Assembly (NCBI GenBank): GCA_010015585.1
Contig: ML975153.1
DNA length: 64,000 nucleotides
Strand: one strand, 5' to 3'
DNA from: Eremomyces bilateralis CBS 781.70
Taxonomy: Eukaryota
The notes beneath the pieces are model-generated. The model saw nothing but the letters and a program-made list of their open reading frames with translations, searched no databases and was not told the DNA's origin. The position numbers and the translations under genes were made by a program. Below, piece by piece: positions 17,410-28,300 of this stretch. Positions within the stretch are counted from its first letter, which is position 1. The number at the start of each line of letters is the position of its first letter.

Positions 17410-17811
17410 CACAACGCTCCTCCGCCTTCATAAGAATTATAATTTATAGAAGGCAAAACTGTTGAACGTCAGGAGAAATCTATCTCAACCACAAGGGAAT
17501 CTGTGAACCGCTCACTGCATATTCAGTGACATCTCCTATCCGACGGTGGTACAATATTTCATTGTCCTCGTCCTGTCTTACGGAAGTACCCTCTGGCCAT
17601 CCTGTCTGTGAGCAACCCTAGCGGAGTTTGCTACTAGCCAGGGTCACCATTGGACAACATCACGGGTGGAAATTTCAATATCTGTGCTCGACGCAAGGGG
17701 AAATCACAAGAAAAAGGGTTAACGACCGAACGAGATTTACTGCTCTTAAACGGTGACACTTAGACCATAAGACACGGTACCGATTAGAGCACCGTCCCCG
17801 AATCAGGAACC

Positions 17812-20232
17812 ATGGAGGCCGAAATTCAGGCCCAGATCCCCAACATTGACCCCATCCTCTCGGAATATTCGGTCGGCTACCTCCACCACGCCTCCACTGC
17901 GTTCATTTCCGAATCCGACCTCTCCGGCGAGTCTCCCTTGGATTCCGCCGCGGCGGACGTCACCGCCCTGCTGCTCTCCGCCTCCGGAGACCTGACCCAT
18001 CAAAATGAGACGGCCATCGCTCAGCTCGTGCAGAAACTCGCCGCCAGCCTCGCCGCCGAGAACGATGCCGACGGCGAAGGTGGACGACGTATCGCTCCTT
18101 CGGCGCGGAAGCTCGAGCAGGCCATCCATGTGGGCTCCCAGCGCAATATCTCATCGACGCTGGGGCTCGCTGGGGGGAACGTGGATCTGGAGTCGGCGGG
18201 GAGCCGGAAGGTCGAGTCACGGGTGGATCGCAAGAAACTCGAGAAGGCCGAACGGAAGATCCGCGCCAAGCAAGATCGGAAGGTCATGAAGAATGTCGAG
18301 TACGAGGCGTCGCGGCTACTGAACCAGCCAAGCGAAACCCAGACGTACGAGGAGTTCTTCATGGCGGTGAACCCGCTACAGCTAGGCTCGGAGAACAGCA
18401 CTAAGAGCAAGGATATCAAGATCGATGGCATCGACATCACTATCGGAGGCCTGCGGATCTTGACCGATGCCAATCTCGGCCTGGCATACGGAAGACGATA
18501 CGGTCTGGTTGGTCAGAACGGTATCGGTAAGAGTACGTTGCTTCGCGCCCTCAGCCGGCGAGAAGTTTCGATCCCAACCCATATCTCCATCTTGCATGTT
18601 GAACAAGAAATCACCGGTGACGATACGCCTGCTCTGCAGGCTGTCCTTGACGCTGATGTTTGGCGGAAGCATCTGCTGCGGGAACAGGACAAGATCTCCA
18701 CAGAGCTGTCGCAGCTTGAAGCGGAGCGGTCGACTATGGCTGATACCTCGGCGGACGCTGAAAAGCTGGATGCGCGCCGAGAAGGGCTCGATATCACCTT
18801 GGCAGATATTCACTCCAAGTTAGCTGAGATGGAGTCAGACAAGGCGGAGCCGAGAGCGGCCAGTATCCTTGCTGGTCTCGGTTTCTCCCAAGAGCGACAG
18901 CAATTCGCAACGAAGACCTTTTCAGGAGGTTGGAGAATGCGTTTGGCCCTTGCACGAGCGTTGTTCTGCGAGCCCGACCTTTTGCTCCTTGACGGTAAGT
19001 GCTAAGACGTCGCTGGATACTGCTTGATGATTTACTAATGCGGAATAGAACCGTCCAACATGTTGGATGTCCCATCGATCACGTTCCTGTCAAACTACCT
19101 GCAAGACTACCCATCCACAGTGCTTGTGGTCTCTCACGACCGCGCATTCCTCAATGAAGTTGCGACAGATATTATCCATCAGCACTCAGAGCGGCTGGAT
19201 TACTACAAAGGGGCTAATTTCGGTATGACATCCACATCTAGAAGCTGGAGACCTTGCTAACAGGCGCTTAGATTCGTTCTACGCCACCAAGGAAGAACGT
19301 CGGAAGACGGCAAAGAGGGAGTATGAGAGCCAAATGGCTGTACGAGCCCATCTTCAAGGTCAGCAATCTTCAATCCTTAATAATAATCACCCACCCCTAA
19401 TGTGTCCCCAGCCTTTATCGACAAGTTCCGCTACAACGCCGCAAAATCGTCCGAAGCCCAATCGCGCATCAAAAAGCTGGAGCGCATGCCCGTCCTTCAA
19501 GCGCCCGAGAATGAGTACACCGTCCATTTCCGCTTCCCCGAAGTGGAGAAGCTGTCCCCACCCATCATCCAGATGAGCAACGTCAGCTTCGGTTACACAC
19601 CCGACAACATTCTCCTCAGCAACGTCGACCTCGACGTTCAACTCGACTCCCGCATCGGCATCGTCGGTCCCAACGGCGCCGGTAAGACCACCGCCCTCAA
19701 ACTCCTGATCGGCGCCCTCGCCCCGTCCAAAGGCATCATTTCCCAGAACCCTCGCCTCCGCATCGGCTTCTTCGCCCAACATCATGTCGACGCCCTCGAC
19801 CTCACCACCTCGCCGGTCGGCTTCATGTCCGCCAAGTACCCCGGCAAGACCGACGAAGAGTACCGCCGCCACCTCGGTGCCTTCGGCCTCACCGGCATGA
19901 CTGGCCTCCAGAAGATGGAGTTCCTCTCTGGGGGTCAGAAGTCCCGTGTCGCGTTCGCCTGCCTCTCGCTGCAAAATCCGCACATCCTCGTGCTCGACGA
20001 GCCGAGTAATCATTTGGATATCGAGGCGATGGATGCGCTGTCGACCGCGCTGCGGAATTTCCAGGGTGGCGTGCTCATGGTTAGCCACGACGTGACGATG
20101 TTGCGGAATGTGTGCACGGCGCTGTGGGTGTGTGATAAGGGGACGATTGAACATTTCGATGGGACGGTGGAGGATTATAAGAAAAGGATTACTGCGGACG
20201 CAGACGCGGCGGGTGTGGTGCGAAAGCATTAA
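17812..20232 (+). CDS. GCN20: ABC-F family translation regulator Gcn20 (two ABC domains, no TM segments), 4 exons
   Basis: [112 protein letters not shown]. Gcn20-type N-terminal extension. Introns at about 18995-19048, 19223-19271 and 19359-19411. Confidence 0.93.
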
Positions 20233-20842
20233 CCGTCTTGGATAGATTTCAGCTGTGGGCACTGCACCGCTGGCGTACGCTCCATCCCATATAAGGGAGA
20301 AAGATACCTATAGACCTACCTAACTAAATGGAATATGGTACACACCAATCCTCTATCTTGAGAATAGAGTAGGCTTAAACAACGCAAAGATCTGGTGTTT
20401 TCGAGGCCATGGACGCAGGATGCTCCTAACTCCCATTACCTGACATCGATGTCAAAGTAGCCAAGTTCCAGTGCCATACGATTTGACTGCGTGATACCCA
20501 CAACGTGCCGAGGTACCAATTTCTGCAAACATAGGTTTATGTAGATGGAAATCCAATGAATCATCACGCATTACCGTCAATGATCATAAACCATCACACA
20601 CAAAGGCTACATGGTCAAGAAACCCCAAGAAATGGGGACACCAACAAGAGCCATGTCCGACCCCGTATCCTACCCCATGCGTAACATGCGTAACCTACTG
20701 TCGTCTCGCCGCCCACCCCCCGAATCGAACCCAACCCCAGCGTCTCCTATCAGTCTTCTGTTTCGTGGCATCTGCAGATCCATACGCGGCGATCCGGCGA
20801 TTCGTCTACTATGGTTGTGTACTCGAATGGCTGCCCCGGTTT

Positions 20843-22642: not shown

Positions 22643-23578
22643 GACAGAGACAGGAGCGACTATCCGCACGAGACCACACTCCTTTCCTTCTCACGTAGTT
22701 ATACTCAAACAGCGAGGGTTTCCATGAGTGGCGTTGAAGCTATCGAAGCCTTGCAGGTATCGCCGCGGTCTGACATTCAGCCAGCCATCCTTCTCTCGAA
22801 GCTTATACTCCACGTAACCAGATCGGAGTCAATATACGCCAGCAAAGGATCTCATTTGCCAACTATTTCCAATATATACTATCAAGTCAATCATTCCAGT
22901 CATATTGAACACCATCACACTTTATCTCAAGGTGGTCGATTACCTCTTACCCTTCAGCACTCCTACAACCGACCTATGATTGCATAGATGTGCAGATCAC
23001 CGAAGGTTCATTCCACTTATCAATGACAAGCCAGTGATATTTCCAATATTTCCCAGCACCCCATTAGCAATTCATTGTTCCTACCTCCAGAACTATGCTC
23101 TGGGCTCCTCCCCTGGAGAACGAGGTGAGGTTAAAGGCCACGCTAACCTTTTTGGGATTCACTGACTAGGGTGGACTTGTCGCCTGAGCGCCTTGACGCC
23201 TGATGCTTGATGCAGATGCTGATGGACAACATCTCGTGCTTTCCACAACAGACGCCTCAGTCAGTCACCTTCTGGCGCTGGTCTGGATGCTTGTTCTGTT
23301 TTCCGGCTCCTTCATTGCCTCGACTTCACCTCGGACGCCTCTGTCACAACCCAACTATCGACCTCACCTCAGAATATATCATGCGTCTCTTCATATAATT
23401 GCTTGCTACAGCTGGACGACTTTCAATTCCCTGCCTTTTCGCTCCAAGCACTTCATGCCGACGACTTAGCGCCTTGCACTGTTTATCGACCGTCCGCCCT
23501 CCTTTCCCGAATCCCCTCGTCCTACTCTCACCTGTGAATTCTCAATATCGAAATAGACCCCTGGCAACAATCGCCACC

Positions 23579-25342
23579 TTGTCGGACCCACGAGATCCCG
23601 CCCGCGGTGCTGCCGCTCCATCTTCTCCATCGCGATCCCGACCCCTATCACCATCCACATCCCCACCGCCCTCCTCTCCCTCCCCAACCGCACCGTCGAC
23701 ATCCCTCGACATCCCCACGCAAAGCCCTCCCCCGTTCTCCTCCCTCTATTTCCCCCCCGACGATTCGGACACCGACTCAAGCGACGCGCCGAACCCCCCT
23801 GCCGCCTCCGCGTTCGTTCCCGCGCCCCCAGCCTTCTTCCATCCCGCCCCGCCGTTCGAGGAATCGTCCTCCTCCGCGGTTGCCGCTTCCGCCGCGAGCG
23901 TCGTTGCCGAGACCAAGGCCGCGCTTCCACCGGACACCAAGGACGCGGTTGGCAAAGACCTTGACGACGGAGAGCCGCCGCCACCGTACAGCGAGGGAGA
24001 TAGTCCGATCGAATCGTTTACATACGTCATGGCGACTGCGGGTGGGCCAGCGAGTATAATCACGCAGGTGCAGCAGCAGTCGGCTGGAGCGCCGTTGAAT
24101 ACGTTGGGAGGTTTGTATCACTGCGGTTGAAGTTGGGCTAGGGCTGACGGACTCGGTGCATTTAGGTTCTGATGAGACGATTACGCTGGATTTGAGGTAC
24201 GCAGGAATGGACCGTGGTGACCGAGGCCGTGACTGATTGTCCGTAGAGGAACGCGGTTCACATTGTCCCGAGATGAATTACTAACGTTACCGGAATTTGT
24301 CCTTCTCTCCTTGTTCCCCAACGGGCTCCTTCCCGACGGCCACATGAACTCGTACCACGATGGAGACGTCTACCCCGTCGATGTTAGTTTCACCGCTCTT
24401 TCCCCCGAGCCGTCCGCTGCCAGCAACCCCAGCCGGCAACCGGGCGGCCTTCTAATCCCTAACGGGCTGCGGCGCCATCTGGCCGACCCGTCTTTGTATC
24501 TATCTGACATGTCTTATTCCTCCCAGTACGATCCCAGTTCCCTGCAGTATATGCTAGATTTCTTCCGGCACGTGGCACAAACTATTCCCGTCTCGGCGCC
24601 TGATGCGAACGAGCAGTCGCAGGGCCCGAATGAGGCCGTGCCTATCGAGCCAATGCAGGGTTCCGCGAGGGACATGCTGCAGGATCGCGCCGGCATCATC
24701 GTGCTGCAGGAGAATCTCGACTTCTACGCCATCCCTCCGAATCGAGACATCGAGCAGACCGAGATGATCGAGGTCAAGCGCGCCGCCGGGCGTGCGTTGT
24801 TGAGGCAAGACGGCATCTTCTCCGGCTTACGAAAAAGCGAGGAGCCGGGTTCTACGGAACAGCATTTGATCGAGATGTTGACCGCTGGGTTTGTCTTACT
24901 TCTTTCTTTCGTTGCTTTGTTGGCCCCTCATCTTCACCAACACGTTCATCTAATCCGAGGCTTCTCACGTGCTGACCCGACATCACAGCGGTTTCAACCA
25001 CGAAGACCGATGGGGCCACCGGGCCGGCGAACCCAACAAAGCGGTCGTCAGCAGCATCGCGCTCGCGCGTCTGCGCACCGACATCCGCGGCAACGACCTC
25101 GCAGGCACCAACGCGGTCAACATGGCGCAGAAGCTGCTCCTGTTCTGGCGGAAGCCGGCGCGACGATGCTGGTGGGAGGGGGTCGAGCTGGACGACGTCG
25201 AAGGTGTGGACGGCCCGCTGAAGGTGTGGATCCGGAGGGTATGGACGCTGGAGATGGTAAGTGGCGATGCCCAGCGACGTGCGGTCGAAACTCTCAATAG
25301 ACGGTATTAACGATGTGGCAGAGCGTTATCGGGTTGCGATAG
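23579..25342 (+). CDS. WHI2: Whi2 stress/growth regulator (Psr phosphatase partner, BTB-like); first AUG at 24029, probable upstream non-AUG extension
   Basis: Spliced product MATAGGPASIITQVQQ...ITLDLRGTRFTLSRDELLTLPEFVLLSLFPNGL...YDPSSLQYMLDFF...IIVLQENLDFY...KLLLFWRKPARRCWW...KVWIRRVWTLEMSVIGLR* (TAG 25340-25342), with five GT-AG introns. The start at 23579 is inferred (see findings). Confidence 0.85.
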
Positions 25343-28300
25343 GCGGAGCGACCGCGTGCGATTTGAGGAGCGTGGTGATTTTTCTGTCGTTCGACGGAGC
25401 GGCGCGGCTGAGATGCATCCATCTGCGGTTTATAACATTGCATCTCTTTTCCCATCCGTGAGCGGCCTCCTTACTTATTACGAAACGATCGTTTGCTGTC
25501 CTTTCGCCCTTCTGGTGTGGTTCGCTTGTGGTTTGCAGCGCGGATCTTGCTGTCCGACCTTCCGCATTTGCACGACCTGCCGTGACGTCGCCTACGGTTC
25601 GATACGCAAATCTAATCTGAGCATTTTTTGCGATCCCGGAGCGCTAACCGGGACTCTTGTGGAGGGATTCGACTCGCCGATGTCAAATCGGGCTTTCTCT
25701 CTCTTCTTTTCCTTTCTCTTCTATGTCAAAAAGCAACGGCTACAGCGCCACAGACCATCTAGTCTAAATTTCATCAGATAGAGTCCGTATCTACGCTTTC
25801 ACGGTTGTGGCACCAGGGGTTGCCCGCCTTTGCGTTGCTATGTCGTCTGATACTTGATATCTACTTGATACACGGGGAATGGCAGCGTGTATAAACGTTT
25901 GAAGTCCTCTACAATTGTTCGAACACACGACTGGTACCTGGAATATCGTCCCTGGAGAACCGATATCACCCAGACAGCGTAGTAGATGAAGTGGTTGATA
26001 TCAGGGTCCATTCCGGTTACGCCAGATACCTTCATATATTGTCCGGCGATCATTCCTTTCTCTATGCCGTCGCATTGCTAAATATTCCAATCAAACCAGT
26101 TGAAAGACCAATTGTCCCGTCAATATCTGAACTTCGAGGCTCAACACGGCCAATAGTGAAGGTATCCCCTTGGCTCGGTGGCTAACACTCCCAAGATATG
26201 TCGCATTCGACCATTTACAACGAGGGTATCTAGGAGTTGAGTGTTGAGTATTGACGGCTCCGACTTCCCCCAGGGTCCAACGCAGCGGGGGCGACCGCGT
26301 ACGATAGAGGGGATCAGGAGCGTACGAAGATAACTCGGACTTAGACTCGGTCATGTGACTAAACCACCTATACCCAAATACGTACCGACCGGAATTCCCG
26401 GAGCAGTTTCCGGGCAGGCTATCATTCGATGAAGTGTTGAAGTCAGGATGGCGTTAGAGATGATGAGTAGACGGAGGGCGCGGAATGTCGGACGGGAATC
26501 TCCATGGGTCGATGGGTCGATGCGATTTTGTGAGAGAGTGTTGGGGGGGGGGACTAATTTAGGGGGAGCCAATATTCATTTCTATCAAGAGGTTTCTTTA
26601 AAATATAATAATTCATTCAAATTCTATCCTAGACTCGGTGGTTCGAATGATACCAACTGAATCATTATTCGAGTTCGTTCAGCAGCACGAAGCTGAGTAG
26701 GCACCAAGGCATTCAAGGGTTCTGTTCCATAGATGTCACGTGGATTTGGGGGAGTTATGCTGAGTCAGCGCCCTTGACCAGTTGACCTCATCACCTCTGC
26801 TCTCAAAGCTCAAGGGACAAAGCTCAATTCCAATCTGGAGGGTCGCCAAGGGTCCACGAGGAATGACATCATCGGCCGCACTGCCGGAGTTAGAGCCCAG
26901 AGCGGGTCTTCTTAGTTTCACTCCAAGACGTGAGTCAGTTCCTGGGGAGTAGAAGTCCAATGATAACTCTCGGTAGGTAACTACGACTTAAAGTTACGGA
27001 TACTGCACCCTTGATTGATCGACCTCTCCACTGGACTATCACACGAGCACGAACTACTGCATAGTAAGTGCAGGCGACATGGCACACCTAGGTGCTATCC
27101 CCAGGTCATATCGTCATAGTTCATCCATCGTGTATTCATGTCGATCGATAGGGACGAAAGTCCACTTCATGATTCACCCAACCCTACTGTCGAAAATCAT
27201 CCCGCTGTCGAGGTTTCTGGCTACATATCCTCTGATCCATGATAGTCGTTGTTGAGTATGTCGTATCTCGCGTGCAGGATTCTCCGCGGAAACGAATGAA
27301 ACTACGCTTGCTGGAAGGCAAAGGGTTCTTCCCCATGTGGCAACTAGGTATCGTGGGCTTCCGACCGGCGCAATGGGACTCCTCAGTAAATCACCCACTC
27401 ATGCCCTGATGAAGGCTGAAATAGCAACGGACAGATCTCCGGTAGGAAAAAGGGTAAGGGTCATTGACATCGATTGGGGTCCGACTGCGACAGGCTGCAT
27501 GCCCCCCCGCCACCCCCTCATTCGGTGAGCTGCCCAAACGAGGAAATAGGAGGGGTCCGCAAGAAAGTTCACCTCAGTAGCCGTCAATTGGATCATCAAG
27601 AGAGCGATGTCGACCCAAGGGAACATTGGGATCATCGTCACGGCCTGAATTGGGGACACGGAAGTTTGGCATGCAGGGGATTAATAGCGCGTCTCAGGAA
27701 ATCAGGGTTCAGATTCCATTATTGCGGACCGTTTGGGAAACGTTACGGGCTGGACAAGCAGGATTATGACGCCAGAGCATCGCAAACTCGCAATTGAATG
27801 GAAAAATGGATGGCCCATGGAATCGATAGTTTGCATGCGCCGGCCAGGATGTCCTTGCAGCGCCAGTGCATCGCGAGCGCAGAAGTGGGAACGAACTTCA
27901 ACGGTCAGCCGCCGAATTTCGATACAGCGAGGAAACGGGCATTTTCGAGATCGCCATCCGAAACCTCGATCGCGGGTGGATGGCCGTTGGAGGGGAATCT
28001 CAAGGAATCCTGTTCGCTCGGCGGGCGCTCCATGAGTCCATGCCGGTCCTCCCCTTGCCGTTGCAAGGCGGTGGGTCCGATTGGTTGACGGTCGGGGTTG
28101 AGCTACCGCTGATGTCATGGTGGTTTGGGACTTGGGGAGGGGTGCGACCTGCAAGGTTGCGAAGTGTGAGGAGACGGTAAGTGGCACTAACTGCTGGCGA
28201 TGACGTCGACGGTTGAGTTTGATCATGGATGGGGATGAATTACAGTGCTATGTCTGGACTGGAAGTACTGTATACAAGTACTGTGTTACTGTGTACGGGA

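Follow-up and report, generated by a model that had tools for sequence, protein, structure and literature searches.

We propose that the Whi2-family gene on the plus strand of Eremomyces bilateralis CBS 781.70 contig ML975153.1 (assembly GCA_010015585.1) specifies two forms of its product, a core form of 299 aa starting at the AUG at 24029 and a long form of 449 aa, which would start at a near-cognate TTG codon at 23579 and carry an N-terminal extension of 150 residues with a candidate PY motif, PPPPY. Positions refer to the whole stretch of DNA that was analysed, 64,000 nucleotides in length, which is called the window below. A conserved extension started at a near-cognate codon, the existence of a long and a short form and docking of the long form through its PY motif make up, in our judgement, the best joint explanation of the data, and one in which we have reasonable confidence. 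An extension of about 150 aa with a non-AUG start and a PY motif had been put forward in an earlier note on this DNA, and the idea is supported here by the conservation of the extension as protein, by a conserved near-cognate codon, by the lack of any ATG and by RNA that is unbroken across the region.

Conservation of the extension as protein

The translation of positions 23558-24109 was used as the query in protein searches with a cut-off of E <= 1e-3. It matched 210 fungal proteins, the best 120 of which come from Dothideomycetes, Eurotiomycetes and Lecanoromycetes (judged by the best matches, the fungus of the window resembles a Dothideomycete), and a second, Eurotiales-centred search added one Leotiomycete among the matches listed; Sordariomycetes and yeasts fall outside the matches compared, which are the best 120 of each search. 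With the extension alone, 118 clusters were matched at 50% identity, and a scan of metagenomes gave 61 related loci, 58 of them distinct. When the window protein was aligned with 22 homologues, the motifs PPPF.S, TKA and DGEPPPPY.EG..P...F.Y.MA.AGG proved invariant, these invariant motifs being common to several fungal classes, and the Met encoded at 24029 appeared in this 23-sequence alignment as an internal invariant residue.

The nucleotide sequences point the same way. Between the window and 22 loci the ratio of non-synonymous to synonymous substitution rates (dN/dS) in the extension was 0.15-0.39, with synonymous sites near saturation, and the differences at codon positions 1, 2 and 3 numbered 13420, 10884 and 20881, an excess at the third position. 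The reading frame was kept in 59/59 loci despite many insertions and deletions. Conservation upstream of 24029 with a dN/dS below 1, which the earlier note had looked to as a check of its claim, is thus borne out by these ratios and by the invariant motifs, and from the comparison of the sequences there can be very little doubt that the extension is coding.

The remainder of the protein, the core, is near-invariant in the full-length alignment with the 22 homologues, and the source names of the matches include general stress response protein Whi2, WHI2-like protein P4H10.16c, growth regulation protein and BTB/POZ fold. By the similarity of its core the window gene is assigned to the Whi2 family; a Pfam search with three core exons and the extension found no family, BTB/POZ included. 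Binding of Psr1/Psr2 and restraint of target of rapamycin complex 1 (TORC1) are functions predicted for the product by analogy with the yeast and Magnaporthe proteins.

A conserved near-cognate codon

At the proposed start site, a nucleotide alignment of 17 loci showed CAC at positions -4 to -2, and likewise the codon's TG, to be invariant in all 17, and the sequence 5' of position -6 to be unalignable, conservation beginning abruptly at CAC(C). By pattern, an NTG codon is present at the homologous site in 38 of the 58 distinct loci (TTG in 24, GTG in 11 and CTG in 3), with A at -3 in 36/38 and G in 2/38; five further TTG loci (L012, L021, L024, L040 and L043) were recognized by eye, and eight of the 58 are cut by a contig end before the start site. 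An in-frame stop lies 4-13 codons 5' of the site in several loci. TTG is used in 24/24 loci of the Thr-Leu-Ser type (TLS-type), whereas at two invariant control leucines it occurs in 0/40 and 0/56 loci, TTG making up 17% of all leucine codons, and it therefore seems to be the base triplet rather than the amino acid that is kept. Departures from this residue are to Val (GTG) or to Met, the latter in a single Hortaea werneckii model whose paralogue has Val; in a Zasmidium model a Met directly adjoins the site. A conserved near-cognate codon in a good context, as the earlier note had anticipated, is confirmed by these counts, and it is probable that the long form starts at TTG 23579.

A possible 4-bp hairpin shortly downstream of the TTG (Table 1) was considered as an aid to a weak start. 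Of the cells in alignment columns 46-58, 83% are paired, an AU-to-GC change is seen in three sequences, others read ACGG/CCGT, and the hairpin bases are kept where amino acids differ. The candidate was rejected as too small and too weak, the regional fold (z = -0.30) being no better than that of shuffled sequences.

The PY motif

PPxY is present in 61/61 loci, as PPPPY in 60 and as PPPAY in one, and it stands in the context DDGEPPPPY(S/T)EG, in which the flanking acidic and Ser/Thr residues are also conserved. PPxY is the standard ligand of the WW domains of Rsp5/Nedd4 ubiquitin ligases. By analogy, the most likely reading, to which we would give about an even chance, is that the candidate PY motif of the long form docks a ligase of the Rsp5/HulA type. 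Two more conserved motifs of PPxF type occur in the extension, PPPFSSLYF (Table 1) and PAPPFEE (about 23835-23860). Ligases of the Rsp5 type have three WW domains, which the three proline motifs would match.

The alternative that deserves most weight accepts the long form and assigns its motif to something else: PPPPY might be bound by a different WW or SH3 partner or act in sorting or as a phosphodegron, or Whi2 might be a substrate for turnover and not an adaptor. We regard this as quite possible, if somewhat short of an even chance. Conservation of PPxY in every locus together with its flanks exceeds what a minimal PY motif needs, and our literature search, from which subscription journals were largely absent, found nothing tying Whi2 to a non-AUG start, an N-terminal extension, Rsp5 or a PY (PPxY) motif. 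The standing of PPxY as a ligand of Nedd4/Rsp5 WW domains counts against the alternative, as does the apparent resemblance of an extension with two extra PPxF-like motifs to multi-motif Rsp5 adaptors.

An AUG-free interval and two proposed forms

In 59/59 loci carrying GEPPPPY the open frame has no Met before the conserved one of 24029; PPPPY or PPPAY is retained in the other two of the 61 loci. Where no contig end intervenes (46 of the 58 distinct loci), one has to go back 442-832 nt from the conserved AUG to reach an ATG in any frame, and eight upstream ATGs were seen against 117 expected from dinucleotide shuffles. The depletion of AUG upstream that was predicted for relatives of the gene is thereby confirmed, and the extension very probably has no AUG start.

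The depletion extends to the other frames. Between the start site and the AUG, no out-of-frame ATG was seen in 23 loci, against 32 expected from synonymous shuffles, the lowest of 500 of which had 20. Ordinary coding sequence need not lack such ATGs; that there are none here fits selection for scanning through to the AUG. The AUG itself has a purine at -3 in 54/54 distinct loci and G at +4 in 52/54. The earlier note's proposal of two isoforms made by leaky scanning receives indirect support from this depletion and from the conserved context, and we lean towards the view that the two forms do arise in this way.

It is rather unlikely, in our view, that the long form alone matters, with an efficient near-cognate start and Met 24029 as an internal residue, or that the short form comes from an internal transcription start. 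The Met does lie inside an invariant block, FTYVMA.AGG, where it could be conserved for reasons of the protein, the bases of the AUG context follow also from the conserved Val and Ala, and the RNA contigs described below are compatible with internal transcript starts. Against this stand the 32 out-of-frame ATGs expected with the protein held fixed, of which none is seen, and the purine at -3 and G at +4 of the AUG.

A small upstream open reading frame (uORF) precedes the start site in most loci and ends 25-126 nt 5' of it. A conserved uORF was rejected as a candidate, since sequence, frame and distance vary and some nearest upstream ATG is inevitable; conservation is not established. A stronger version of the two-form model would make the order of uORF, near-cognate codon, AUG-free run and AUG a switch that sets the ratio of Rsp5-coupled long Whi2 to bare short Whi2. 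That ratio would be governed by the supply of ternary complex or by how stringently start codons are chosen, and ribosomes reinitiating after the uORF, which ends at the short distance just given, would tend to skip the TTG when eIF2 is limiting. We think such a switch unlikely. If it did exist, a regulator that acts between amino acids and TORC1 would be re-tuned by the same starvation signal, a feedback loop absent from the yeast model.

The transcript and the neighbouring genes

The RNA evidence consists of assembled contigs of one public run, which are spliced and carry no depth profile, strand or true ends. The contig with the Whi2 gene is composed of the pieces 23330-24108, 24245-24382, 24527-24887 and 25321-26871, joined at GT..AG sites without any loose end, and it skips five GT..AG introns; a six-exon model gives the two protein lengths stated above. 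Over 23330-24108, that is across the whole extension, the contig is unbroken. The earlier note had raised two possibilities that would change the picture. The first, a spliced upstream AUG exon using an AAATAG acceptor at about 23556, is not seen, the RNA running straight through; as to the second, a transcription start downstream of about 23900, RNA is present 5' of 23900, and a second, internal start is still compatible with the contigs. The extension is thus part of the mature mRNA and is unjoined to any AUG exon, both in the window contig and in two intron-less contigs from the metagenome scan, L057 and L043, which belong to two other organisms. In L057 a 216-nt leader, which aligns with genomic locus L049, contains one 6-codon uORF and an in-frame TGA and is followed by CACC-TTG. 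In L043 a 65-nt ATG-free leader is followed by CACG-TTG; this transcript-like contig is from the same organism as the intron-bearing L045 and L035, relative to which a C/T run in it is longer by one T; this insertion, which disrupts the frame of the extension, is most likely an assembly error.

Public gene models imply a different origin of the extension, from the AUG of a spliced upstream exon. Upstream of the Whi2 gene, on the same strand, lies an ABC-F (GCN20/ABCF3-like) gene (17788-20332, plus strand) with two ABC_tran domains and three introns, and among the best 120 of the 210 matches 57 are models in which Whi2 is joined to the ABC-F gene upstream, the partner being an alcohol dehydrogenase in 6; among the best 120 matches of the Eurotiales-centred search, 30 have dipeptidyl peptidase 3 as partner, and a partial flag is carried by at least 12. 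Translation from an upstream exon is, however, very improbable. The Whi2 contig shows no joint or loose end across 23330-24108, and the ABC-F gene has an RNA contig of its own, separate from that of Whi2 and ending at 20332. The fusion partner varies by lineage and other models are flagged as partial; several loci have the in-frame stops 5' of the site; and the leader of intron-less L057 matches the genomic sequence of L049. That the partner follows whichever gene is the neighbour in a given lineage fits gene callers which require an ATG, and the fused or partial Whi2 models would be an artefact of this requirement.

Weighing the proposal

What the earlier note states of the sequence of the window was found to be correct throughout. 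The Whi2 frame is open from stop to stop over 23399-24130 (plus strand; 243 codons), as the reading of open reading frames (ORFs) confirms for the interval from 23399 to the AUG at 24029; around the site the plus strand has ATGs at 23381 and 23455 and none thereafter until 24029, which bears out the claimed freedom of 23458-24028 from ATG in every plus frame, the last ATG before 24029 being that of a mini-ORF which ends 110 nt 5' of the TTG. The in-frame TTG at 23579 (gccaccTTGt) and CTG at 23561 (agacccCTGg) are both as described, and the quoted peptide was verified, the frame reading ...SPPPFSSLYFP...ETKAALPPDTK...DDGEPPPPYSEGDSPIESFTYVM with PPPPY at 23975-23989. As evidence these features of the window are weak, because the stretch 23458-24028 is 44% C (251 C in 571 bases) and all three plus frames, as well as one minus frame, are open there (135-183 codons). 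The 574-nt ATG-free gap ranks only second longest on the plus strand, gaps of 856, 721, 685 and 644 nt being found elsewhere in the window (the last three on the minus strand), and from the TTG to the AUG 1.4-1.7 out-of-frame ATGs would be expected from protein-keeping shuffles, against none seen. It is from the comparison with the sequences of other fungi that the open, ATG-free stretch takes its significance.

That the stretch is an untranslated C-rich leader whose composition explains the open frame, the 299-aa protein being the only product, is scarcely credible, given the invariant motifs shared across classes, the frame kept in 59/59 loci despite indels, the third-position excess with a dN/dS of 0.15-0.39 and the abrupt onset of conservation at the start-site context, and even though the C content, the three open frames and the insignificant ATG depletion of the window taken singly would suit such a leader, as would phosphosites of Aspergillus nidulans AN10545 that most likely lie in the core, no proteomic support for the extension having been found. 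These phosphosites, S103-S111 of AN10545/WHI2, are listed in PMC8399174; as evidence for the extension they were rejected, most likely being part, if a related sequence is numbered from its internal Met, of the core's Ser-rich linker, and the portion of the supplement of that paper available to us contained no AN10545 or motif match.

A number of observations weigh against the proposal as a whole or against its start codon. The window by itself offers no more than chance would, and the loci compared are related by descent, so that the counts given above overstate the number of independent events. TTG is usually a weak start codon, position +4 is T and not G in 25/38 NTG loci, and the window has other in-frame near-cognate codons that might serve as alternative starts (TTG 23474, GTG 23534, CTG 23561 and ATC 23570). 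The site is not universal: in L005 (326-640) the TTG is followed nine codons later by a TGA and preceded by an in-frame ATG, its old N-terminus reads as a 24-codon uORF and an ACC-ACG-GCG site is present, so that it represents either a lineage in which the start has moved downstream or a sequence error. In six Chaetothyriales-like loci an ACG-G site is kept without change some 15 codons beyond the TLS-type site, on its 3' side. A second site of the form CC(A/C)(T/C)C-ACG-G, in which A stands at -3 and G at +4, is shared by L020, L022, L025, L032, L036, L042 and L048; the first site reads TTA in L032, and the codon after the ACG site reads TTC in L048. Since the ACG site is invariant even where the neighbouring TTG has been lost, an ACG start in this lineage is suggested by the sequences. 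A further ACC-ACG-GC site is found near PPPF in several lineages. Lineages may thus differ in their exact start, with more than one start per gene a possibility. The contigs leave room for a second, internal promoter, which may make the short form. Finally, the predicted structure of the long form of a homologue is a poor model overall (mean predicted local distance difference test score (pLDDT) 47; predicted template modelling score 0.30), residues 1-174 having block-mean pLDDT values of 27-46, with a few single residues reaching 50 and almost no secondary structure; as a model it suggests that the proline/serine-rich extension is disordered.

Taking these points into account, our working model of near-cognate initiation with leaky scanning is as follows. 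Scanning ribosomes would pass one or two tiny uORFs and then reach TTG 23579 in its strong CACC context, where a fraction of them would initiate and make the 449-aa long form, whose first 150 residues would carry the motifs PPPFSSLYF, ETKAAL and DDGEPPPPY(S/T)EG. Ribosomes bypassing the TTG would next traverse 447 nt free of AUG in every frame and would then start at AUG 24029 to make the 299-aa core form. PPPPY would dock the WW domains of a ligase of the Rsp5/HulA type, and coupling to ubiquitylation would be a property of the long form only. Within this scheme we infer that initiation takes place at exactly TTG 23579, that both forms come from leaky scanning and that PPPPY docks WW domains.

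Features of the locus

The coordinates of the features are given in Table 1.

Table 1. Features of the Whi2 locus in the window
Feature	Position	Strand	Remarks
Spliced RNA contig with the Whi2 gene, 3128 nt	23330-26871	+	Both ends are those of the contig, not mapped ends of the mRNA
Upstream mini-ORF 1	23381-23398	+	ATG, 5 codons (MRLFI), TAA; at -648; inside the RNA contig
Upstream mini-ORF 2	23455-23469	+	ATG, 4 codons (MPTT), TAG; at -574; out of frame
Proposed start site	23573-23582	+	Near-cognate TTG 23579-23581, context gccaccTTGt
N-terminal extension (predicted)	23579-24028	+	150 codons, ATG-free in every frame
Exon 1	23579-24110	+	From the proposed TTG; part after the AUG, 24029-24110
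Possible 4-bp hairpin GCGG/CCGC	23604-23616	+	25 nt 3' of the TTG; weak support
Conserved motif PPPFSSLYFP	23726-23755	+	P110, P111, F113 and S115 invariant in 23 sequences
Conserved motif ETKAALPPDTK	23909-23941	+	T172, K173 and A174 invariant
PY-motif block DDGEPPPPYSEG	23963-23998	+	D190 to Y197 invariant; PPPPY, 23975-23989
Conserved internal AUG (gtcATGg)	24029-24031	+	Proposed start of the short 299-aa form; Met in 59/59 loci
Exon 2	24166-24196	+	RNA contig and translation
Exon 3, start of BTB-like core	24247-24382	+	RNA contig and alignment
Exon 4	24527-24888	+	RNA contig and translation
Exon 5	24989-25256	+	RNA contig and translation
Exon 6 with stop codon	25322-25342	+	Protein end SVIGLR

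The Whi2 RNA contig extends 1.5 kb beyond the stop codon (25343-26871), and this part represents a very long 3' untranslated region or else the merging of an overlapping transcript. Between the ABC-F and Whi2 genes, in a gap of 3 kb, there is a separate RNA contig of low depth (22215-23057; depth 5; one C>T difference at 22710), which may be a non-coding or an upstream transcript, none of its ORFs having a family match. A Pfam search of seven intergenic or 3' ORFs, including those in 25343-26871, found no family; the ABC-F gene alone was confirmed.

Significance

Whi2 is a conserved brake on TORC1, is relevant to virulence in plant-pathogenic fungi and has been studied as the product of the AUG start. 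Should the long form be real, work on most filamentous ascomycetes has missed a third of the protein, and this third would hold the most invariant short motifs of Whi2 together with a likely docking site for a ubiquitin ligase. Constructs for tagging, complementation or two-hybrid work that were made from the annotated AUG would in that case lack the extension. The proposal also accounts for a systematic fault of annotation: because there is no ATG, dozens of public Whi2 models are partial or fused to the upstream gene. For the study of near-cognate initiation it would provide a second, clean and widely conserved fungal case beside cpc-1.

Comparison with known systems

The core of the window protein is homologous to proteins named Whi2, general stress response protein and WHI2-like. 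Whi2 of Saccharomyces cerevisiae and MoWhi2 of Magnaporthe oryzae act with the partner Psr1 to restrain TORC1, as set out in the available text of the MoWhi2 paper (PMC8295519), and that text makes no mention of an N-terminal extension, a PY motif or a non-AUG start. In the literature searched, from which subscription journals were largely absent, a near-cognate-started, PY-bearing extension of Whi2 is apparently unreported, the kind of start being known from cpc-1. As to the candidate docking function, adaptors and substrates of Rsp5/Nedd4 ligases that carry PY motifs, such as the arrestin-related adaptors, have been described (PMC9282857 and PMC2171029, in the portions available). Like these partners, the Whi2 extension has its PPxY in a proline-rich segment, with almost no predicted structure in a low-confidence model, and has further PPxF-like motifs; unlike the arrestin-related adaptors, it is without an arrestin fold or a membrane anchor, and its PY partnership is predicted from the motif.

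Targeting isoforms started at non-AUG codons are made from ALA1, GRS1 and HFA1 of S. cerevisiae. Further fungal examples, taken from the sections of the reports available to us, are the 6-phosphogluconate dehydrogenase of Ustilago maydis, with a non-AUG-started targeting isoform (PMC7214817), and ArgRS and LeuRS of Cryptococcus, with near-cognate long forms in the contexts cccaccAUU and gccaccACG (PMC7049704). As far as these sections go, the genes resemble Whi2 in that one mRNA would give a long form from a near-cognate codon in strong context (gccaccTTG in Whi2) and a short form from an AUG. Their extensions are short and target organelles, whereas that of Whi2 would have 150 residues with motifs of interaction type and no evident targeting signal.

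The closest likeness is to Neurospora crassa cpc-1, whose product, CPC1, is extended at its N-terminus from conserved near-cognate codons (Ivanov et al., 2017; PMC5487733). In the parts of that report available to us, the cpc-1 extension, like that of Whi2, is in frame, AUG-less, found across the Pezizomycotina, about 150-180 codons long, under purifying selection and placed behind short uORFs, its near-cognate codons stand in near-optimal context with A at -3, and automated annotation has treated it inconsistently. The cpc-1 starts were shown there to work in vitro and in vivo, whereas the Whi2 start is predicted from sequence. The two systems also differ in layout: the near-cognate starts of cpc-1 lie 5' of an inhibitory uORF2, which they bypass (PMC5487733, same parts), whereas no long uORF separates the site from the AUG in Whi2, whose interval, free of AUG in all frames, fits plain leaky scanning.

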